Source: a virus (Duplodnaviria; Caudoviricetes). Taken from it: a stretch of 43,286 nucleotides of DNA. Below the pieces are notes generated by a model. That model saw only the letters and a program-made list of their open reading frames with translations, made no database searches and was not told where the DNA came from. Positions 4,672-31,961 of this stretch are shown here, piece after piece (the stretch's first letter is position 1; each line of letters starts with the position of its first letter). The stretch spans positions 1-43,286 of the IMG/VR virus record IMGVR_UViG_3300036982_000428; one strand, written 5' to 3'. A program made the position numbers and the translations under genes.

Positions 4672-5508
4672 TTACATCAGATTGTTAAGTTTCATTGACC
4701 GAATTAAACGTGTTATTCCAATACCACCTCCCCAACGTGGAATAAAATCATGTCTTAGAAATTCATTTAGTTCATCCAATACTCTGTTATATCCAAAGGT
4801 TGAAAATAGTTTTTCAGAATATTTACCATTTTCGATTGTAAAAAATGTTTCTCTCATTTGTTCCTTATCACATGAACGTTCTGCAGATCCTATTGTTTCC
4901 TGACCACTTAGAATTACATCAATCTTATTTGCTGTTCCGGTATTGTTTCTGCTCATGTTCCAAAATGGATTTGTATATTCCGGAAATTGATTTATGAAAA
5001 CTATTGGACCAAAATCTTTTTCCATTGCATTTTCTTCAATAGATGTAAGTTCTTTCATGTCATAGTGATTAGCCAATTGTTTATAGCTATAATTATGAAA
5101 TTCACGTTTGAATCCAAGATAATCTAATAGGTCAATTTCAAATTGATACAGGTCAGCAATTCCACCATGTGATTCAAATTCAAACATAGGAAATATCTTA
5201 CAATGTCTACCCTCAATTGCATTCGGTTCATTCCGGTAAGATGTAGACAAACAGAAACATCCTGCAATAGTTGGGGTTTTTAATAAACTTCCCTCCAGGT
5301 GCATCTGACCTGTTTGTGGCAATGGATAAACTTGTGAATCATACACAAATGTGCTGATGTTGTGTGGATCTTCACAGGCTGCAAGAATAGACAATCTGTT
5401 TTGTGTATGGACTTCAAGAAATCCTTTTTCAAAACAAAATTCCCTTAATTTTTTTGTTACAAAAGTAAAATCCGCATCGTTAATATGCGGATAGAAAGAA
5501 TTGTTCAT
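4672..5508 (-). CDS. Class IIb aminoacyl-tRNA synthetase catalytic-domain-only protein (AsnRS/AspRS-like; possibly archaeal-type asparagine synthetase)
   Basis: Motif 1 region LREFCFEKGFLEVHT; LPQTGQMHLE; motif 2 YRNEPNAIEGRHCKIFPMFEFE; ETIGSAER; motif 3 GGGIGITRL; no N-terminal OB anticodon domain; start ATG 5508 preferred over 5553 because a small ORF ends at 5513. Confidence 0.85.
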   Translation of the reverse strand: MNNSFYPHINDADFTFVTKKLREFCFEKGFLEVHTQNRLSILAACEDPHNISTFVYDSQVYPLPQTGQMHLEGSLLKTPTIAGCFCLSTSYRNEPNAIEGRHCKIFPMFEFESHGGIADLYQFEIDLLDYLGFKREFHNYSYKQLANHYDMKELTSIEENAMEKDFGPIVFINQFPEYTNPFWNMSRNNTGTANKIDVILSGQETIGSAERSCDKEQMRETFFTIENGKYSEKLFSTFGYNRVLDELNEFLRHDFIPRWGGGIGITRLIRSMKLNNLM

Positions 5509-5512
5509 GTAG

Positions 5513-5620
5513 TTAATTATTTTTATCTTCAAAATATTGGTCTTGATGTTCATCTTTTGCCATCACTAAACCTATCAGAATCAAAAATATCGCAATTGTT
5601 AATATTATTATAGCAGTCAT
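5513..5620 (-). CDS. Small single-TM protein (35 aa), not in ORF track
   Basis: Hand translation MTAIIILTIAIFLILIGLVMAKDEHQDQYFEDKNN; fits the gap between neighbouring genes. Confidence 0.65.
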   Translation of the reverse strand: MTAIIILTIAIFLILIGLVMAKDEHQDQYFEDKNN

Positions 5621-5630
5621 AGTATTTTTT

Positions 5631-5969
5631 TTATTTAGTTTCAAATAAAGGAAACATTTTACTAATCTGATCCTGATTGCGAGTTACTCTGATGGCATCT
5701 TTCCATTGATGCTTCCAGTTATGCAAAGCAGAATCCTGTTCTTCAATTGATTCATAAATAAAAATAATTCTATAATACTCACGTTCTTTAACAATTGCTT
5801 TTTCAATCATTGCTCTGTCATCCATTGCCATGAACATAAGCGGTTGTAATAGTTGTGGATTTTCTGTTGAAACTACCTGAACACAGTAGAATAGTTTTTG
5901 AGCAGGTTTAGTTTGGGCAGTTGCAGAAATGCTAAGTAATAATCCGAGTGCAAATAATAATGTTTTCAT
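5631..5969 (-). CDS. Secreted SPOR-like domain protein
   Basis: Bacteroidota-style signal peptide (ATA|Q); YCVQVVS...YYRIIF.YESIEE...WKDAIRV resembles the SPOR fold. Confidence 0.55.
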   Translation of the reverse strand: MKTLLFALGLLLSISATAQTKPAQKLFYCVQVVSTENPQLLQPLMFMAMDDRAMIEKAIVKEREYYRIIFIYESIEEQDSALHNWKHQWKDAIRVTRNQDQISKMFPLFETK

Positions 5970-5992
5970 TGTGATTAAGATTTAAAGAGTTG

Positions 5993-6256
5993 TTAAATAA
6001 AATTGTAAGATGATTCCCAGTCTAATTTGTCTTGTGTATTTAGATTTATCTCTAAAAGTTTGTGTAAATCTTTTTCAGATATAGCTAATAAATTTGCTAA
6101 GTATTCAGGTTCAATACATTCTCCATCTAAAATTATATCTGTTATTTGCCAGTAAGCAGGAATATGTTCATGATGGAATCCATCACCATAAGCATCAATA
6201 AAAGTTCCGGTAACTTCAATTGTGTAATCTTTGATTTTAATTGTTGTTGTTGTCAT
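5993..6256 (-). CDS. Hypothetical protein
   Basis: ORF in the inverted cassette. Confidence 0.7.
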   Translation of the reverse strand: MTTTTIKIKDYTIEVTGTFIDAYGDGFHHEHIPAYWQITDIILDGECIEPEYLANLLAISEKDLHKLLEINLNTQDKLDWESSYNFI

Positions 6257-6428
6257 GGTTTAAAAATTTTTCAGATAAATAAATGTTTTTGCCTTGTAGT
6301 TTGTAAACATATAAAGTATTACTATCCATCATCATGTAAGATTTAATGTGAATAATTGTACTTGTAAAAGGTTTTGTCATTCCATCATTGTAAGTGACTG
6401 TATCACCTATTTTGAATTTGCTTTGCAT
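6237..6428 (-). CDS. Hypothetical small beta protein (KFKIGDTV start)
   Basis: First ORF downstream of the - strand promoter. Confidence 0.65.
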   Translation of the reverse strand: MQSKFKIGDTVTYNDGMTKPFTSTIIHIKSYMMMDSNTLYVYKLQGKNIYLSEKFLNHDNNNN

Positions 6429-6476
6429 GATCTTAAAATTTAGTGGTTAATAATTCCGTATTCGTTAATGATGAAT

Positions 6477-16465: not shown

Positions 16466-16745
16466 CTTTGATAAATATTCCATTAACTGTTTTACCAGTT
16501 CTGTTTTTAATTGTTTCATAAGCTGATTCAAGACATTTATCAGAATCAAGATTATATAATTCAGATAAGATTATCAAAACTACCTGGACATCTCCAATGC
16601 TGTCTATAATCTGAACAATGTCATTTTTAGCAATTCCTTGTGCTAATTCTCCTACTTCTTCAATCAGCTTTATAAACTGCTTCTGTCTATTTAATGGATC
16701 TAATAGGTTCCGCTGCTTCGCCCAATTCAAAATCTGTTCTTTCAT
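16443..16745 (-). CDS. MazG-like all-alpha NTP pyrophosphatase
   Basis: KLIEEVGELA...DSIGDVQVVL...AYETIKNRTG. Confidence 0.85.
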   Translation of the reverse strand: MKEQILNWAKQRNLLDPLNRQKQFIKLIEEVGELAQGIAKNDIVQIIDSIGDVQVVLIILSELYNLDSDKCLESAYETIKNRTGKTVNGIFIKDENNTER

Positions 16746-19181: not shown

Positions 19182-19199
19182 AATTTTGTTTTAAGTTAT

Positions 19200-19430
19200 C
19201 AGAGTGACATTGATGTCCCTCTGTGAAAAATACCGTTCCTGCCTACTTTATGTACATACGGTAAAAGATGCATCCTCATAACCTTCGGGCAGGTAAGTTA
19301 TAATAAAAAAAGGCTGATGTCGTAATTACAGATGCTATCCATAAACACAGCGAATTAAAGAAACATCATTTTCGCCACACCTTTTATAAGACCACAAAGC
19401 TGTTCTGATGGGAAGCTGTTATGGTACGGT
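19200..19430 (-). ncRNA. Candidate structured ncRNA / cis-regulatory leader (strand inferred from flanking genes)
   Basis: No ORF; GC-richer than its flanks; several 5-6 bp helices, two crossing sets. Confidence 0.45.
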
Positions 19431-19436
19431 TATTTA

Positions 19437-20985: not shown

Positions 20986-21462
20986 TTAAATTAAATAAAA
21001 TCTTACGTTCTCTGTTTTTATATCCGGAGATATATCAAATCTTCTTGTTTCATGAATCGGAACTTCTATGAATGTTTTATTCCGGAATGATTTTGTTATT
21101 TTTCTTGAATCAATATTGAAGAATCTGTGAGCATTGTTTATGCTATCAAATATTATTTGTGTACCATCAAGAAAAACAGCTTTTAATTTGGTTGATTTCT
21201 TAGGAATTACACCATAAAGTTTTTTAGCCTGCTTACGAATTTCAATATAGTGCTTTACTGAATTTTCTGTAACTAACCTTGAGATGATTATATTTTCATA
21301 TTTAACTAAATTGCCATCATCATGCTTTAGATATATTTCCGGTTTAGCTTCTTGTAATTCTCCATCTTTGATTAGCATTCTGATTCTTGTTTCAGCATAC
21401 ATTGTATTCTTTGGTTTCTTATCTTTAATCTTGCTTAATGCCTGTTCAAATGTTAGATACAT
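20986..21462 (-). CDS. Putative DNA-binding protein (C-terminal NUMOD1-like HTH)
   Basis: IFDSINNAHRFFNIDSRKI pattern. Confidence 0.45.
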   Translation of the reverse strand: MYLTFEQALSKIKDKKPKNTMYAETRIRMLIKDGELQEAKPEIYLKHDDGNLVKYENIIISRLVTENSVKHYIEIRKQAKKLYGVIPKKSTKLKAVFLDGTQIIFDSINNAHRFFNIDSRKITKSFRNKTFIEVPIHETRRFDISPDIKTENVRFYLI

Positions 21463-21475
21463 AGTTTATTTGTTT

Positions 21476-21538
21476 AAAAAATGCTCTGCTTTTTACACAG
21501 AGCAATGACCACTAAATGAAAACACATACATATGAACA
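21476..21538 (-). ncRNA. Candidate ~60-nt small RNA bounded by promoter and terminator
   Basis: TATATTTG at 21546-21539; TGCTCTG/CAGAGCA stem plus U6 at 21504-21476; antisense matches to gene starts. Confidence 0.55.
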
Positions 21539-21546
21539 CAAATATA
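21539..21546 (-). promoter_or_regulatory. TAnnTTTG -7 element
   Basis: TATATTTG on - strand in an AT-rich intergenic region. Confidence 0.7.
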
Positions 21547-21585
21547 AAATAATTATTTTATTTTTATCATTATTTTGTAAAAATA

Positions 21586-21951
21586 TTACAAAGTTTCTTT
21601 TTCTGCATTTGTTGTTGCTCTGTTTACTGCTGCAAAACTAAGTTTATTAACTTCACCCATAAACCAGTCAACTTGTGTTGGTGGAAGTAGTGCAATGGTT
21701 GCCATCATCTCTGTCATGGCTCCTACATTCTCAAAATTGTAACTATGCAGTTCTGCTACCTGCTCTTTTGTTACTTTACGTTCAAGACCTTTCAAAAAGT
21801 TCTGCATGAAACTTCTTAGGTTCTTGTAAGTCACCTTATCCTGACTATTCATGCCATCCGGATTAAGTTGCGTAATTGAATAAATACCTGCATTTAAACA
21901 TGAGATAAGTAAATACATGTCTGCTGCTCTGTTTGCTCTGTCGTTTGTCAT
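21586..21951 (-). CDS. Hypothetical protein
   Basis: 121-aa ORF. Confidence 0.7.
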   Translation of the reverse strand: MTNDRANRAADMYLLISCLNAGIYSITQLNPDGMNSQDKVTYKNLRSFMQNFLKGLERKVTKEQVAELHSYNFENVGAMTEMMATIALLPPTQVDWFMGEVNKLSFAAVNRATTNAEKETL

Positions 21952-21971: not shown

Positions 21972-23381
21972 TTATAAAGATAAATTTTTTAATATTTTGT
22001 AAAGTACGTTTACAACTATTGAATTACCTGCCTGTTTATATGCCTGTGAATCACTTACGGGCCATGTAAAGGTATCAGGGAAATCCATTAATCTAAAACA
22101 TTCACGAGGGGTAAGTCTGCGGATTTGATGTGTATTTATAATATTACCACCCCAAGTTTGTTGACCAGCATTTAGAGCTGGATTTATGCCATTAATATTA
22201 TAAACTCTATTTTGTTGATATGGCTGCTTATTTCCGCTTTCTTTGCTTTGATTAAGTTGTATTACTTCTGTTGCAATCAATCCCTCTTTTTTAGGATTTG
22301 AATTAGCTAAAATAGTATCAGAATAATCTTGTTCTTTTATTATAAGTTCTTTGTCTTTAAAACTTCCTGAATCTTTACCAGTTTTTTTATAGGTTTCTTT
22401 TCTTCTTTTTTTCTCTTCTTCAGATCTACCATTTTTAACTATCATCACACCCTGATTACATCCTGTGTCTAAAGTCTGAGCAACTCCTTTTCCTACTCTT
22501 CCTCGCCTTGTTTTACTTTCGGGAAATTCTAAGTTTATAGAATCGCCATCGGTTGCTTCCTCATAACCTTTGGATGTAGCAGAGTTGATTTTGATGTAAT
22601 TATCCTGTCTGCCCATTTTTGCCATTTCAGTTCTTAATGACCTTGCTAAATCAGTATTATTAATCATTTCAGTATTTACTTGAAATTTGTCAGATTCATA
22701 ATTTTGTAAACAATTAACCATCTTTTCACTCAAAAAATACTTATCATCAACCTTACTTTCTAAAACATCTTTAAGCCTTTTTGTCAAATGTTCCTCAGCA
22801 GGAAACCTAAAATTATTATCTGCATCGTCACGAATACCGATTAAAAAAACTCTTTCTCTGTTTTGTGGTACTCCATGATTCTTTGCGTTTAAAACCTGCC
22901 AGTATAAGTGATAAGGAACAGAATCAGCATAAGGAAATAATATAGGATTTCCGTTGACCGTCTTACCACCTAACAAATTAACCCACTCTGAAAAAGTTTT
23001 ACCGCCATCATCTGATAGCAATCCTTTTACATTCTCAAAAATAAAATATCTCGGTTTGTTTACTTGAATAAATTCTAAACTATTAAAAAATAATATTCCT
23101 CTTTTATCCTCTTTGCCTAATCGTTTACCTGCTAAACTGAAAGCCTGACATGGTGGAGAAGTCATATAAATATCCAAACTATCTTTTGGTATCTCACGAT
23201 CATAGACATTTGTTGGATAATATTCAGGTTGTCCGTAATTGTGAATGAATGTCTGTCTTGCGTATTTATCCATATCACAGGCGAATATTTCTTTATATTC
23301 TATGCCGAGCCTATTTAGTGCTTGATTGAATGCACCCACTCCGCTAAAATCTGAGCCTACTTTTATCATATTATTTTTCAT
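21972..23381 (-). CDS. DNA (cytosine-5) methyltransferase with long variable region
   Basis: FSGVG (motif I), SPPCQAFS (IV), ENVKG (VI), QNRERVF (VIII), RRLTPRECFRLM (IX), YKQAGNS (X). Confidence 0.95.
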   Translation of the reverse strand: MKNNMIKVGSDFSGVGAFNQALNRLGIEYKEIFACDMDKYARQTFIHNYGQPEYYPTNVYDREIPKDSLDIYMTSPPCQAFSLAGKRLGKEDKRGILFFNSLEFIQVNKPRYFIFENVKGLLSDDGGKTFSEWVNLLGGKTVNGNPILFPYADSVPYHLYWQVLNAKNHGVPQNRERVFLIGIRDDADNNFRFPAEEHLTKRLKDVLESKVDDKYFLSEKMVNCLQNYESDKFQVNTEMINNTDLARSLRTEMAKMGRQDNYIKINSATSKGYEEATDGDSINLEFPESKTRRGRVGKGVAQTLDTGCNQGVMIVKNGRSEEEKKRRKETYKKTGKDSGSFKDKELIIKEQDYSDTILANSNPKKEGLIATEVIQLNQSKESGNKQPYQQNRVYNINGINPALNAGQQTWGGNIINTHQIRRLTPRECFRLMDFPDTFTWPVSDSQAYKQAGNSIVVNVLYKILKNLSL

Positions 23382-26013
23382 GTTCTAATATCGGTTTAAA
23401 CGGTATCTTAACTGCTTTTGCATAAATACCTGTGCTGTAATAAGTTCGTTTAACTTTTTCTGCATCTTTTATCCTGGATAGAATCTGTCCGTAATTCTTT
23501 GTCCAGGAAGTATTTTTTAAATACCCTTGCAATACTGATGAATCAGGGTTAATAAATATAAAATCATCTTCTAACTTTATTCCATTACGTTTTAATACTT
23601 TTTCTGCAGTTCTACTACTTACCGGAGCAGAATCACCATAAACACATTCATCTTGAATCTCTAACAATTCTCCAACAGTCCTGGTATGTTGTCCGGTATG
23701 GTCTGTATCAACTCTAATCTGAATACTTAATATGTGCTGCAGACATTTTATTTCATCAGTAACTGCATTCAATCCTTGTTCTTCACTAAAATCAATATCA
23801 TTTATCAATGAAAGAACATCATCAATAGTAGCTATTTCATCATTGCTTAAATGCCAACATCCACCTAACAATGCACCTAATTGATCCCCCATTGCTCTAT
23901 TTGCTAACTTTTCTGTAATTACATTAGTGAAAACTTCAATAGTCTTTAAAATCTGTGGTATCAGGTTTATTATCCTGGACTGAAATCTTTTTACAAAATC
24001 ATCAGTAGCAAATTTTCTAAACTCTTTTTCAAGTTCAATAAAATTTTCATTGTTTAGCTTTCCTTTCTTTAATTCCAGGATAGTTATTCTTCTTAAATCT
24101 GAATTATGTATTGCCTGTGGTACAATACTACAAAAAGCAAAACAGGACTTAATCTGATAAGTCTTTGCACCACTACCGGTACCTTTTGCAATTACACCAC
24201 CATCAGATGAAGATGCTGATCTCATAAGCTGCAATACTTTCTGAATCTGAATCTGTGCATGCTCATTCTCACCCTCTGCTTCATCGAATAGCACATTTAT
24301 TGCATCATTACCAATAAATTCTCTTAGACCTGCTTCTGATGTGTTACCCTGTACTGATATGCTTATATCTTTTGTAAATTTCTGTAATATTTCTCTATTC
24401 ACCCATGACTTACCGGAACCTGCTCCACCAGTTATCCAAATGTGAGGTCTCCAGTTTAATACTCCGCAAATAGGTGCTAATGCTACCCATCCACCCAACA
24501 AAATACAGTCTACATCTCTTACCCATGAAAGTTTTTGTATTGTTTCTAATATCTTATGTGATTCATCCTTTGTTAATGGATTGGCAGTTGTTAGATTCAA
24601 TGGATGTTGCAATTCATACCAGTATTCAGTATCAATATCTCCTAATGCAAACTGATTGTTATCTACCAACAGATGACTGCCACAATGAATAACAATTCTA
24701 CCTTTATCTATCCAGGCTCCTCTTCCTCTGATTTTGTTAGGATTGAAATAACCAATTCTATTACTGTTTTCAATAATATGATTAACAGCAGCGTCAATAT
24801 CGAATCCATTTTTTTTAGGATAGTTTGTTTGCCAATAATTTATAGGTGCTAATGTATATAAATTTGATTTATTCAGCTTTGATGCAGGTAAACTTAGTAT
24901 TGTCTTACTTCCGAAAACATAAAAATTGAATAGCTGAACATTATCTGACTGCTTTGTGAATCCGAGATAGCGAAAATAAATATTCTCTAATGTTTCAGAT
25001 TTGCGTTCTGTTGCACTATTTGTTCCTGATTCAGATATTGGTCTTGGTTTTGGTTTAAATACTCCAAAATCGTTTCTGTATGATTTATAAGGAAATTCAA
25101 CACAGTTAGTTTTAACTTCTACTTTAAGTTTTTCTTCAACAAATTTCTTAGCATCCTTTTCAGGTATTCCCATTCTATTTGTAATAACACAGAAATAAAA
25201 CACATAATTGTGTATATTTCCTGATACACATTTACCAACTTTGTTTTCAGCGTATTTAACAGCAATTTTAAATAGATCATCTTCTTCTGCAAATTCATTA
25301 TTTATTTCTTCTTCCATGTTTTTTGTTGGTAGAATCTTTAGCCAGGTCTCCAACATTTTTAAATCAAGATATTTTGCTTCATAGTTAATGAAAATATCTG
25401 AATCATGTGACAAATATCTTAATCTCTTTACTTCTTTTGTATTTCCTGCAACAATTTTTAATTCTTTATATAATAAATCTGAAAAAAATTCATAATAAGT
25501 TGTGTGAATCTTACTAATATAATTATCTTCTTTTAGTTTTAATTTATCTATTATGTATTCAGTCAGTTCATTATAAGATTTAGGTAATTCTATTAACACA
25601 TTTATCCACATAGATCCATTAAACTTACCGGATACAGATTTACCACATGCTTCAATGAATGGAATCCTACCGGATAAAACAACTTTATTAAATTCATCCA
25701 ATTCAATCCGGTTATTCATGTCAATATCCATGTTCATTCTTCCTGAATGCTGAACAGCTGTCTGTTCTTCTATGCTCTTATATCTGTCATAGCATCCGGA
25801 GAAAACAACACATGGAAGCATATTTTTCTTATCATCCTGGTATTCTGTTTTTTGATTATTATCAAATCCAAACTGCAATTCCTGTTCCCATTTGTTTTGG
25901 ATAAAATCTGTTTGCTTTTGAAATGTTCCTTGAGATATGTCTATGTAAATATCAAAGATGTCTTTTTTAGTGGCAGTCTTTGATGTAAGACTGTCGTAGT
26001 AATTACAATTCAT
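23371..26013 (-). CDS. Primase-helicase (BT4734/VirE_N-like N-terminus plus P-loop ATPase)
   Basis: KKNMLPCVVFSG...DID...SVSG; Walker A GGAGSGKS; Walker B VLFDEAE. Confidence 0.8.
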   Translation of the reverse strand: MNCNYYDSLTSKTATKKDIFDIYIDISQGTFQKQTDFIQNKWEQELQFGFDNNQKTEYQDDKKNMLPCVVFSGCYDRYKSIEEQTAVQHSGRMNMDIDMNNRIELDEFNKVVLSGRIPFIEACGKSVSGKFNGSMWINVLIELPKSYNELTEYIIDKLKLKEDNYISKIHTTYYEFFSDLLYKELKIVAGNTKEVKRLRYLSHDSDIFINYEAKYLDLKMLETWLKILPTKNMEEEINNEFAEEDDLFKIAVKYAENKVGKCVSGNIHNYVFYFCVITNRMGIPEKDAKKFVEEKLKVEVKTNCVEFPYKSYRNDFGVFKPKPRPISESGTNSATERKSETLENIYFRYLGFTKQSDNVQLFNFYVFGSKTILSLPASKLNKSNLYTLAPINYWQTNYPKKNGFDIDAAVNHIIENSNRIGYFNPNKIRGRGAWIDKGRIVIHCGSHLLVDNNQFALGDIDTEYWYELQHPLNLTTANPLTKDESHKILETIQKLSWVRDVDCILLGGWVALAPICGVLNWRPHIWITGGAGSGKSWVNREILQKFTKDISISVQGNTSEAGLREFIGNDAINVLFDEAEGENEHAQIQIQKVLQLMRSASSSDGGVIAKGTGSGAKTYQIKSCFAFCSIVPQAIHNSDLRRITILELKKGKLNNENFIELEKEFRKFATDDFVKRFQSRIINLIPQILKTIEVFTNVITEKLANRAMGDQLGALLGGCWHLSNDEIATIDDVLSLINDIDFSEEQGLNAVTDEIKCLQHILSIQIRVDTDHTGQHTRTVGELLEIQDECVYGDSAPVSSRTAEKVLKRNGIKLEDDFIFINPDSSVLQGYLKNTSWTKNYGQILSRIKDAEKVKRTYYSTGIYAKAVKIPFKPILEHEK

Positions 26014-26030
26014 TATGTATTATTTAGTGG

Positions 26031-26360
26031 TTACAAATTAAAATCTAAATCTTCAAGTTTTCGGCAAATTTTAGCAATTCCACCCGAATTTTTTACATTT
26101 TCTAAAAATATCTTTTGGTCATCAGATATTTTACCTGTTTCTGTCTTTACTTCCAATGCTGTAAAAATAGCTATTTTCTTTCCAATCATATCAGCTGTGA
26201 TTTCTGTACTGGTCCATCCAATCAAATCAGACGAACCAGGACAAAGACCATAAACAATAGTAGTGTGTTCTGTCTTACATACTCCAACATTATTCCGAAA
26301 TAGTCTAACGTTTTTTGGAAGATTTAATCTTAGTAAATTTTGCAGATTCTTTTCTTTCAT
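26031..26360 (-). CDS. VRR-NUC nuclease
   Basis: LFRNNVG...GSSDLIG...LEVKTETGKISDDQ; likely start MKEK at 26360. Confidence 0.9.
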   Translation of the reverse strand: MKEKNLQNLLRLNLPKNVRLFRNNVGVCKTEHTTIVYGLCPGSSDLIGWTSTEITADMIGKKIAIFTALEVKTETGKISDDQKIFLENVKNSGGIAKICRKLEDLDFNL

Positions 26361-29025: not shown

Positions 29026-29071
29026 TCATATCAAATGAAATTTATTTAAAAATCTTTAAAATTATCACAAA

Positions 29072-29542
29072 ATGAAAACACATTGGAGAAAGTTGAAAGA
29101 CACAAATTATCTCGGTTCATGGGATGTTGTGGACAATGAATTGATTCTTACAATCAATGACATTGAAACTAAAAAGGTTCAGTCACCTGATGGCAAAACA
29201 GAAGAACTGCCAGTAATGACATTCAAAGAAGATTACAAACCTATGATTCTGAATGCTACAAATTTTAAAGCAATACAGAAAGCACACAATTCTCCTTTCC
29301 TGGAAGATTGGATAGGCAAAAAGATTGCAATCTATGTTACATCAGTAAAAGCATTCGGTTCTGTTGTTGATGCTCTTAGAATTAAACCATCAGCACCAAA
29401 AACAACAAAAACTGTACTGACTGTTGACAATCCTAAATTCAAATCTATCAAAGAAAAACTTGCTTCCGGTGAAACAACTATTGATACTGTTAAGCAATAC
29501 TTTGAACTTTCTGATGATATTATTAACCAATTAAAATCTTAA
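29072..29542 (+). CDS. Putative ssDNA annealing / recombination protein
   Basis: THWRK...YLGSWD...KPMILNATN...EDWIGKKI family; paired with an exonuclease. Confidence 0.55.
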   Translation: MKTHWRKLKDTNYLGSWDVVDNELILTINDIETKKVQSPDGKTEELPVMTFKEDYKPMILNATNFKAIQKAHNSPFLEDWIGKKIAIYVTSVKAFGSVVDALRIKPSAPKTTKTVLTVDNPKFKSIKEKLASGETTIDTVKQYFELSDDIINQLKS

Positions 29543-30141: not shown

Positions 30142-30175
30142 AAAAGATGGTCCTGGGGTAACAACTTCCAGGACC
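30140..30175. terminator. Hairpin between convergent genes
   Basis: GGTCCTGG/CCAGGACC stem; A-run on the left gives a U-tract on the - strand. Confidence 0.7.
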
Positions 30176-30194
30176 TTCAAAATTATGGCAAGAT

Positions 30195-30458
30195 TCAAAA
30201 CGTATCAAATTTATAACATTCCAATGAATTATAAAATTTTTCATTATATTCTTTTCCTCGAATGTTAAAATGAACTTCAATTCTGCTACCGGTTGATAAA
30301 CTTTTTAACAGATCTGTTTTGTCTCCTAACAGGTCAAATTTTACCTTTTGCGGATACTTATCTTCTGTTTCAATTACAAATTCTGCTGTCTTAAATTTCT
30401 TATCTCCTCTCTCTGTAATGGAAGATTTTTGAATTACTTTGCCTGCAACTTTAAACAT
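30195..30458 (-). CDS. DUF3127 OB-fold ssDNA-binding protein
   Basis: EFVIETEDKYPQKVKF...VHFNIRGKEYN.KFYNSL. Confidence 0.85.
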   Translation of the reverse strand: MFKVAGKVIQKSSITERGDKKFKTAEFVIETEDKYPQKVKFDLLGDKTDLLKSLSTGSRIEVHFNIRGKEYNEKFYNSLECYKFDTF

Positions 30459-30489
30459 TTTTTAATAATTTTTAGTGTTAAATAATGCT

Positions 30490-30560
30490 CAAATATAAGA
30501 CTAATTTTCATAAAAAAAATAAAACATTTTGTTTGATATTAGTTACTGTCTTTACATTTG
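30490..30560. promoter_or_regulatory. Divergent promoter elements
   Basis: TATATTTG on - strand (30497-30490); TTTG-N21-TACATTTG on + strand (30528-30560). Confidence 0.65.
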
Positions 30561-31121
30561 TTATTATTACAATAAATACAACAACAATAATTATCAAAAA
30601 CAATAAATGTATAAACACTAAACTATTTTTATAATTATAGTTTTATACACGAAAATATTTTTTCGACTTTTTAGTTAAATTTTAGTTAACAATTAAAAAT
30701 AAATCTTTCTGTATTATGCTTCAATACTATACTTTCAGACGATTTTTCATTATTAGTAAAAAAAAAATAAGGGTTACAGAGAATATGTGAGACTCTGTGT
30801 GAAAGTCTAACACAAAAACAATTCTTATATATATATTTATATTTTTTTATAATAATGAAAATAATAATAAGATATAGTGACACACTACCTTTCAGAAAGA
30901 TTTTTTTTTAATTAGACATTAAATGCGACAAATACGACGTTTTATGCTATTTTTCAACAAATATTTTCTGATTGTTTAACTTTATCCAAAAAAACCATCT
31001 AAAACGAACAAAAACCGACTTAATTTCAATTTTATTTACAAAGTGGTATATTCGTATCACTCACATTGAAAAAGTGTCTTAAAATAGCCTTTAAATAAAT
31101 CTAAAACAATTTGTTTCAATT
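30561..31121. other. Very AT-rich non-coding region (candidate origin / pac region)
   Basis: No credible ORF; lies at the early/late junction ahead of terS. Confidence 0.4.
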
Positions 31122-31402: not shown

Positions 31403-31410
31403 TATTTTTG
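31403..31410 (+). promoter_or_regulatory. TAnnTTTG -7 element upstream of the packaging operon
   Basis: TATTTTTG. Confidence 0.6.
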
Positions 31411-31476
31411 TAATGATCGGATGTTTTCATAAAAATATGATTTAGAGTTTGCCCCTGTTACCAGGCAGGGGTTTTT
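31411..31476 (+). ncRNA. Candidate ~60-nt leader / small RNA ending in a terminator before terS
   Basis: CCCCTG/CAGGGG stem plus T5 (31452-31476); body antisense to gene starts. Confidence 0.55.
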
Positions 31477-31487
31477 AAAAAAAAATT

Positions 31488-31895
31488 ATGGGTAGACCAA
31501 AGAAATTTGACAATGTAGAAGATCTACAGCTTTTGATAAATGAATACTTTGCATGGTGTGACGCAAGGATTGAATCTGTCTTAACTAAAGATGGTGAATT
31601 AATTGATAAACCATCTCCAAGACCTTACACAGTTGAGGGTTTAGCAGTTTGGTTAGACATGGACAGACATACACTTCAAGACTATGAAAAACTACCAACA
31701 CATTCACTGTTTCACTCCACAATAAAAAAAGCAAAGGCAAGAGTGCTTCAAAATCTGCAAGAAAGAGCCTTGGATGGCAAAAATAATGCAGCCGTTACCA
31801 TCTTCAATCTGAAAAATAATTTTCAGTTCAGAGAGAAAGATTATGACGATCATGGCAGCAATGACATCAATGTGAAAATAAATTATACAGAATAG
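31488..31895 (+). CDS. terS: Terminase small subunit (P22 gp3-like DNA-packaging family)
   Basis: GRPKKF...INEYF...PYTVEGLAVWL...IFNLKNNF. Confidence 0.85.
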   Translation: MGRPKKFDNVEDLQLLINEYFAWCDARIESVLTKDGELIDKPSPRPYTVEGLAVWLDMDRHTLQDYEKLPTHSLFHSTIKKAKARVLQNLQERALDGKNNAAVTIFNLKNNFQFREKDYDDHGSNDINVKINYTE

Positions 31896-31930
31896 ATTTT
31901 AGGTTTTAGTTTTTAGTGTTAAAAAATCGG

Positions 31931-31958
31931 GCAGCATGTAATAGTGCTGCTTTTTTTT
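31931..31958 (+). terminator. Terminator between terS and terL
   Basis: GCAGCA/TGCTGC stem plus T8, ending 3 nt before the terL ATG. Confidence 0.75.
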
Positions 31959-31961
31959 CAG

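Follow-up and report, generated by a model that had tools for sequence, protein, structure and literature searches.

Genomic context of unit A

On the minus strand of the phage genome, a short cassette that we denote unit A is located between the last gene of a helicase-primase-methylase run, which encodes a 121-aa protein, and a gene for a 158-aa protein (Table 1). The run would end at the unit A terminator. Given that only 13 nt separate the U6 tract from the next AUG, the unit A promoter probably also feeds the downstream genes via read-through, and this supply is compatible with, and does not exclude, an RNA role. The 158-aa protein is weakly similar to the NUMOD1/I-HmuI DNA-binding domains (Pfam match below the cut-off; fold match with E 0.023); its candidacy as an RNA-binding partner was dropped after a fold search without a match at E 0.001.

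The window, that is, the entire stretch of DNA analyzed here, corresponds to a single virus record (43,286 bases, 100% complete) with a 300-nt terminal repeat and a G+C content of 32%. Among its 61 proteins, PHROG matches include terminases, a tail protein, primase, helicase, exonuclease, SSB, methylase and lysis genes and neither an integrase nor a repressor; the majority of the proteins have no match. The primase gene (23371-26013) was assigned to PHROG 35358; no relatives of this primase were found in bacterial genomes, and cultured phages match its C-terminal part only, at less than 37%. SD-like 4-mers occur in 1 of the 61 start regions, and adenine shows maxima at -13 to -11 and at -3, the same A-peak pattern as in the start regions of Flavobacterium johnsoniae described in PMC6847099, according to which upstream adenines matter for initiation in Bacteroidota. 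Given the scarcity of SD-like 4-mers and these A peaks, the host of the phage probably belongs to Bacteroidota. Two long intergenic stretches have no assigned feature (19182-19436 and 30459-31121), the second of which is very A/T-rich and may contain the origin.

Table 1. Unit A, its predicted targets and associated features in the window
Feature	Position	Strand	Basis or details
Predicted -7 promoter box, TAnnTTTG type	21539..21546	-	sequence TATATTTG at 21546-21539
Conserved A/T-rich upstream promoter region	21547..21570	-	12 aligned units share 10 invariant columns ahead of the box
Unit A small RNA, predicted, 59 nt	21476..21534	-	+1 placed from the box position
Seed 1, anti-AUG	21514..21527	-	14-nt perfect complement to 29070-29083
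Seed 2, anti-leader; 4-nt overlap with seed 1	21508..21517	-	10-nt perfect complement to 26022-26031 and 6438-6447
Intrinsic-terminator-like hairpin and U6	21476..21504	-	hairpin 21504-21482 (8 pairs, 4 G-C); U6 21481-21476
Downstream 158-aa gene, co-travels with unit A	20986..21462	-	41 viral loci
Upstream 121-aa gene, last in helicase-primase-methylase run	21586..21951	-	ORF map, PHROG matches
Predicted target: start of 156-aa OB-fold-like gene 29072-29542	29064..29083	+	19/20 pairs, -21.7 kcal/mol, rank 1/61, p=0.001
Predicted target: leader and AUG of gene 6237-6428	6424..6447	-	21 pairs including G-U, -19.5 kcal/mol, rank 2/61
Predicted target: leader of primase gene 23371-26013	26014..26031	-	18 pairs, -18.3 kcal/mol, rank 3/61, p=0.017
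Predicted target: start of gene 5631-5969	5961..5970	-	10-nt perfect complement across AUG; -15.8 kcal/mol
Unit B, second promoter-body-terminator unit, ahead of small terminase gene	31403-31478	+	conserved in L008, G001, G005, L011

Anatomy of the predicted small RNA

The promoter box, hairpin and U6 tract that a sequence-only reading of this locus had stated are all present. In Flavobacterium psychrophilum, the TAnnTTTG box spans -12 to -5 (PMC9723704), which would place the unit A +1 at 21534 and yield an RNA of 59 nt. In the predicted +1 column of 12 aligned units, read by eye, 10 have a purine, and the preceding base is a pyrimidine in 11; given that the window has C at 21534, its +1 may be 21533. 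A -33-like triplet can be recognized tentatively 21 nt ahead of the -7 box. The 30-nt body is G/U-rich and nearly unfolded (-0.7 kcal/mol) and is present in a single genomic copy, all other matches being to the promoter region only. At the gathering score, Rfam gave no matches in the whole window. With its own predicted promoter and terminator and no coding capacity, as in trans-encoded base-pairing sRNAs, unit A is, judging by its sequence, a conserved small-RNA-like promoter-body-terminator cassette. The one RNA run examined (X1, share 0.10, available as contigs that give neither strand nor ends) contains three contigs near unit A, one of them from 21287 to 21487, and none across the body. 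A 41-codon ORF that starts at 21516 on the opposite strand was considered as a membrane-peptide toxin with unit A as its antitoxin and rejected, being only 8-10 codons long in the relatives.

Complementarity to translation start regions of the same phage

Unit A had been proposed, from the sequence alone, to be a multi-target antisense RNA directed at translation start regions, and the underlying matches were readily reproduced: 21514-21527 is identical to 29070-29083 over 14 nt, and 26022-26031 and 6438-6447, both of which read ACCACTAAAT on the mRNA strand, are complementary to the body. Seed 1 faces the AUG, and seed 2 faces the stretch from -18 to -9; the predicted duplex with the 29072 gene spans -8 to +12. 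The start of gene 5631-5969 is a fourth predicted target that the sequence-only reading had missed. As for the proposed products, the designation of the 29072 gene as a recombination protein agrees with its position, next to the exonuclease gene, and with nothing else: the 156-aa protein has no Pfam match and appears OB-fold-like instead, with PrgE as the best fold match (E 5e-3). The leaders of genes 5631-5969 and 29072-29542 (5961-5996 and 29045-29080) are 72% alike over 36 nt, which suggests a shared leader module.

The AsnRS-like gene, also named as a target on account of a match between GUUCAU and its AUGAAC start, could not be retained. The GUU of GUUCAU lies upstream of the predicted +1 at 21534, so that the 6-nt match would be mostly untranscribed; the start ranks 14 of 60 at -12.9 kcal/mol, which is not significant; a 35-codon ORF overlaps the AUG at 5553; and in the G006 homologue, translation begins at the later Met. 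This ORF (approximately 5514-5621, minus strand) is hydrophobic; the AsnRS-like frame, whose first AUG it overlaps, probably has its true start near 5508.

The first set of start regions comprised 60 regions, 5 of them a few bases off the ATG, and was rebuilt into a set of 61. Within the 60, the longest perfect complement to the body is 14 nt, a length matched by 1 of 500 dinucleotide shuffles and by none of 300 shuffles constrained to retain TTTCAT; 4 of the 60 have a complement of at least 10 nt, which none of 500 dinucleotide shuffles achieved. Genome-wide, there are eight perfect complements of at least 10 nt, four of which fall in start regions (shuffle mean 0.39; none of 300 shuffles reaches four). 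In the rebuilt set, such complements are found in 4 of 61 start regions versus 4 of 929 regions around internal ATGs. Thus, in the proposed comparison with dinucleotide-shuffled controls, complement-length counts exceed the shuffles, and the excess is less marked by energy (p=0.076 for the best duplex and p=0.024 for the top five, 60 regions). The statistic of the four longest complements and the length cut-offs were picked after the window had been seen; these window statistics are post hoc, and therefore the real test rests on the relatives. A register test, in which CAU on AUG was best on average, is true by construction and was set aside.

The matches could also arise without any RNA pairing, by chance in A/T-rich sequence, as remnants of inverted leader copies, or as double-stranded DNA operators for the NUMOD1-like neighbor. 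Although the 32% G+C of the genome, a plain motif count that over the whole window does not exceed the shuffles, and the weak likeness of the neighbor to DNA-binding domains all fit this explanation, the shuffle and internal-ATG controls speak against it, as does the strictly antisense orientation of the matches (same-sense identity to start regions is at most 8 nt). The first mismatches flanking the perfect matches, which are not independent, comprise 3 of the G-U type, 14 of the A-C type and 40 others, so there is no wobble preference at these positions, as expected without RNA pairing; conversely, no TAnnTTTG box is found near the primase site, and the body follows the coding letters at the AUG (see below). 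Taken together, these observations make an origin without RNA pairing very unlikely.

Conservation of the cassette in related phages

Three clades of related phages have the unit A cassette at the equivalent position. In G001 and G002, the cassette is kept with the same terminator as in the window; in L045 and L047, it has a different terminator and a different upstream gene; and in G006, it has a third terminator and lies one gene further up. In other clades, the unit A hairpin is replaced by different hairpin sequences with U tracts. Within the third clade, 41 viral loci have the downstream gene; 36 were inspected, and a body was extracted in 30 of the 30 cases in which this was tried. The linkage between the 121-aa gene and unit A is lost in L004-L007 and L046, where unit A is absent after the homologues of the upstream gene. 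Conservation across the 12 aligned units is highest in the promoter region: TA..TTT is invariant, and the promoter is kept in all 12, with the final G of the -7 box lacking in the third clade. All three CAU triplets to which attention had been drawn are present in the window, and just one of them is kept across the relatives; CAU occurs in 15 of 18 bodies versus 3.2 expected, these bodies being related, and one third-clade body variant lacks it.

In G007 and two of its kin, the slot is occupied by a tmRNA and a tRNA, behind which come a U-rich trailer and a terminator; in this operon (L058, 15653-16065; also L055 and L057), the trailer is complementary to leaders of the same phage. A tRNA-like element, read by eye, is located between the terminator and the homologue of the 158-aa gene in L147, L148 and L156-L158. 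Beyond approximately 5.5 kb from unit A, the gene content of L066 (G002) resembles that of another phage, and the record may be chimeric.

Matched changes of body and targets

The own-genome signal was measured as the summed length of the four longest complements, expressed as z. The window body reaches 4.4 on its own genome (p=0.001) and 3.6 on the close relative G001, and at most 1.7 on four other records. On their own genomes, the bodies of G001 and G006 and the trailer of G007 yield 2.6, 2.6-2.8 and 2.9, respectively, and on other records G006 stays at or below 0.7 and the G007 trailer at or below 1.8; in contrast to these, the window body attains p<0.05 on one third-clade record as well, and the G001 body on two.

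The primase start was fixed beforehand as the target from the window and then ranked in the relatives. It ranks 3 of 61 for the window body, 3 of 35 for G001, 1 of 61 for each of G002, L045 and L047, the bodies of which were scored against the start regions of the window, and 1 of 43 for G006 (p=0.017, 0.041, 0.001, 0.003, 0.002 and 0.004, in this order); the L045 and L047 bodies are alike at 29 of 33 positions and count once. The G002 body aligns collinearly with the leader and first codons of the primase (-26.0 kcal/mol on G001), in a register unlike that of the window body. In G006, the primase is 54% identical to that of the window, and both its leader and the body are unrelated to those of the window; nevertheless, the G006 body pairs with the G006 primase leader (-15.3 kcal/mol), compared to -4 to -6 kcal/mol crosswise and -11.1 kcal/mol for the window body on the G006 primase. 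The OB-fold gene of G006 starts with AUGGAA rather than AUGAAA (Met-Glu-Lys vs. Met-Lys), and the G006 body carries the matching change (9 nt); by energy, the pairing of this body with its own OB-fold gene is not significant (p=0.45). The primase start is likely the main conserved target of unit A, with predicted pairing that follows the change of the body in the nearer clades.

In the third clade, the primase of which belongs to the same PHROG family as that of the window, the perfect-complement test is null in 7 of 7 own records (z -0.7 to 0.7), three of which are complete or nearly so, and the energy test yields p 0.01-0.06 in 4 of 5 (0.26 in G313). Of 14 tests, 7 place the primase start at ranks 1-3 and the others at 4-21, and 3 give p<0.05; a gene with a DnaB-N domain that adjoins the primase ranks first in G318 and G319. 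The unit L003/G003 gives no own-record signal (z=0.1; the record is 26% complete). In G003 (L065, minus strand, promoter at 16598), a body without CAU has a 13-nt perfect complement to the leader of a gene of the same phage. Imperfect complementarity to distant mRNAs is thus above chance and accompanied by matched change, with little or no such signal in the third clade. Equivalent units with compensatory changes, which the sequence-only reading had suggested looking for in related phages, are accordingly present in the nearer clades, and the antisense interpretation is supported for the start regions of the phage itself, by both shuffles and relatives, and is not supported for the AsnRS-like gene or, in the genomes searched, for host mRNAs (see below).

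The constancy of the primase among the targets, together with the position of the body inside a likely operon mRNA, ahead of the terminator, would also be expected under cis action, with the body being the 3' tail of the helicase-primase operon mRNA that folds onto the primase leader, or else part of an attenuated promoter for the downstream genes, which at 13 nt from U6 to the next AUG need read-through. We consider cis action unlikely: three of the four window targets are on other transcripts, all 12 aligned units retain the promoter despite the changing upstream gene, and the slot in G007 carries stable RNAs.

Unit B and other RNA-like elements

In a pattern scan for unit B, 7 of 12 loci lacked the unit context and were discarded. 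Against the start regions of its own phage, unit B shows no match signal (z 0.8 and 0.0). In the bacterial genome collection, 20 exact complements to its conserved 19-nt core were found, 8 of them at the starts of a putative queA gene, 5 in Weeksellaceae, with families assigned from record titles. On the conserved Weeksellaceae leader, the G001 version of unit B would pair over 33 nt (-35 kcal/mol) and the window version at -28.5 kcal/mol. With at most one mismatch, the 20-nt queA-leader site is present in 61 of 301 Weeksellaceae genomes, and the 30 loci that were read all show the same gene. As a lead, unit B is therefore a candidate host-directed sRNA and a hint at the host. In these 30 Weeksellaceae-family loci (L090-L119), the 17 nt directly before the queA-like start are nearly invariant, which hints at a host regulatory site.

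Two further elements of the window are of this general kind. The region between the terminase genes has a U-rich tail that is followed by a terminator (31893-31961, plus strand) and includes a 14-nt perfect complement to the leader of the SSB gene (30458). Upstream of another terminator, the SSB gene has a short 3' tail (30146-30195, minus strand) with an anti-AUGGCA stretch in the window and in G001.

Proposed role of unit A

FopS (RF04319) and GibS are sRNAs of Bacteroides thetaiotaomicron, and FopS RNAs, which bind RbpB, repress translation near start codons (PMC11697453). On balance, unit A is probably a FopS-like trans-acting repressor of the replication and early genes of the phage itself. 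Under this scenario, host RNA polymerase would fire the unit A promoter early, at the same time as the target genes, and the 59-nt RNA would accumulate; seed 1 would cover the AUG and first codons of the targets, and seed 2 the A-rich stretch at -18 to -9 that Bacteroidota ribosomes would use instead of a Shine-Dalgarno site. Initiation would then be blocked, resulting in a delayed brake on the primase, the OB-fold-like protein and two cassette genes. The sequences themselves show complementarity above shuffles, a conserved cassette and matched change of body and primase start; the transcription, repression and timing of the unit A RNA are inferred.

Alternatively, unit A could be a FopS-like anti-start RNA acting mainly on host mRNAs, such as those of outer-membrane transporters, with the phage matches reflecting a shared make-up of start regions. 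The seed is nearly identical to the FopS consensus 5' end; SusC-like transporter mRNAs are repressed by FopS, of which one phage carries a copy (PMC11697453); CAU persists in third-clade bodies that lack strong targets in their own genome; and the sister unit B is predicted to pair with host queA starts. Against this reading, the bodies are more complementary to the genome that carries them than to others within the family. The sequence-only reading had allowed for host mRNAs as additional targets, a suggestion that gains nothing from the 251 Weeksellaceae genomes searched, where the 19-nt complement is not in excess (31 matches vs. 28 for a reversed control), or from five genomes searched for a unit A host target, where none was found. 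A mainly host-directed role is therefore improbable.

Repression of the phage's own starts by unit A could be one part of a broader arrangement, a kit of retargetable anti-start RNAs on one scaffold, which we put forward as a rather doubtful scenario: unit A would be rewritten in each lineage to follow its own primase start and act as a replication timer free of any protein repressor (with release from a tRNA trailer in one lineage), and unit B would silence host queA, so that phage and host translation would both be controlled.

Comparison with known systems

Phage RNAs that repress genes of the same phage in trans through short complementary boxes are exemplified by the c4 antisense repressor of P1/P7, a processed, structured RNA of temperate-phage immunity. 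The setting of the window differs, with no Rfam match and no integrase or repressor among the PHROG matches of the 61 proteins. RNAII of plasmid pMV158 is encoded opposite its target. Like unit A as proposed here, RNAII is a small RNA that inhibits translation of an essential replication gene (PMC4485353), whereas the unit A RNA gene is 4.5 kb away from the primase start, pairs imperfectly and has several predicted targets. VpdS (VP882) and PreS/LPR1 (lambda) resemble unit A in being short, phage-encoded, trans-pairing RNAs with a link to the control of replication, and differ in being Hfq-dependent, in having Proteobacteria hosts and, as far as these sources describe them, in having no retargeted anti-AUG seed; PreS acts on host dnaN and enhances its translation (PMC12197685; bioRxiv 10.1101/2024.10.31.621285).

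The closest likeness is to FopS, with which unit A shares a primary-sigma promoter, a single-stranded 5' stretch, a Rho-independent terminator, a length of approximately 60-70 nt and a seed over the start codon (PMC11697453). Seed 1 contains a 10-nt stretch that is one U shorter than the FopS consensus 5' end; this stretch lies 8 nt in from the 5' end of the RNA, and the relatives do not retain it. By the Rfam model, unit A is not a FopS member: RF04319 (cut-off 56 bits) gives no match at 21476-21546 even at E 10, and its best score in the genome is 18.1 bits at 31893-31961. Unit A further differs from FopS in that it is a single copy rather than a paralogue family, has a variable body that follows the starts of its own phage, and has phage replication and early genes as predicted targets instead of host SusC mRNAs (PMC11697453).

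In the literature covered, which included few subscription papers, we found no description of a Bacteroidota phage with an anti-start RNA directed at genes of that phage, nor of a regulatory small RNA from such a phage beyond a passing mention, in PMC11697453, of a FopS sequence carried by a phage, which may bear on novelty. Bacteroidota initiate translation without Shine-Dalgarno pairing, and unit A names a specific conserved target, the primase start, together with natural compensatory pairs; therefore, the proposed repression is directly testable with reporters. If correct, it would amount to protein-free timing of replication by a phage and to a minimal programmable silencing scaffold for Bacteroidota.
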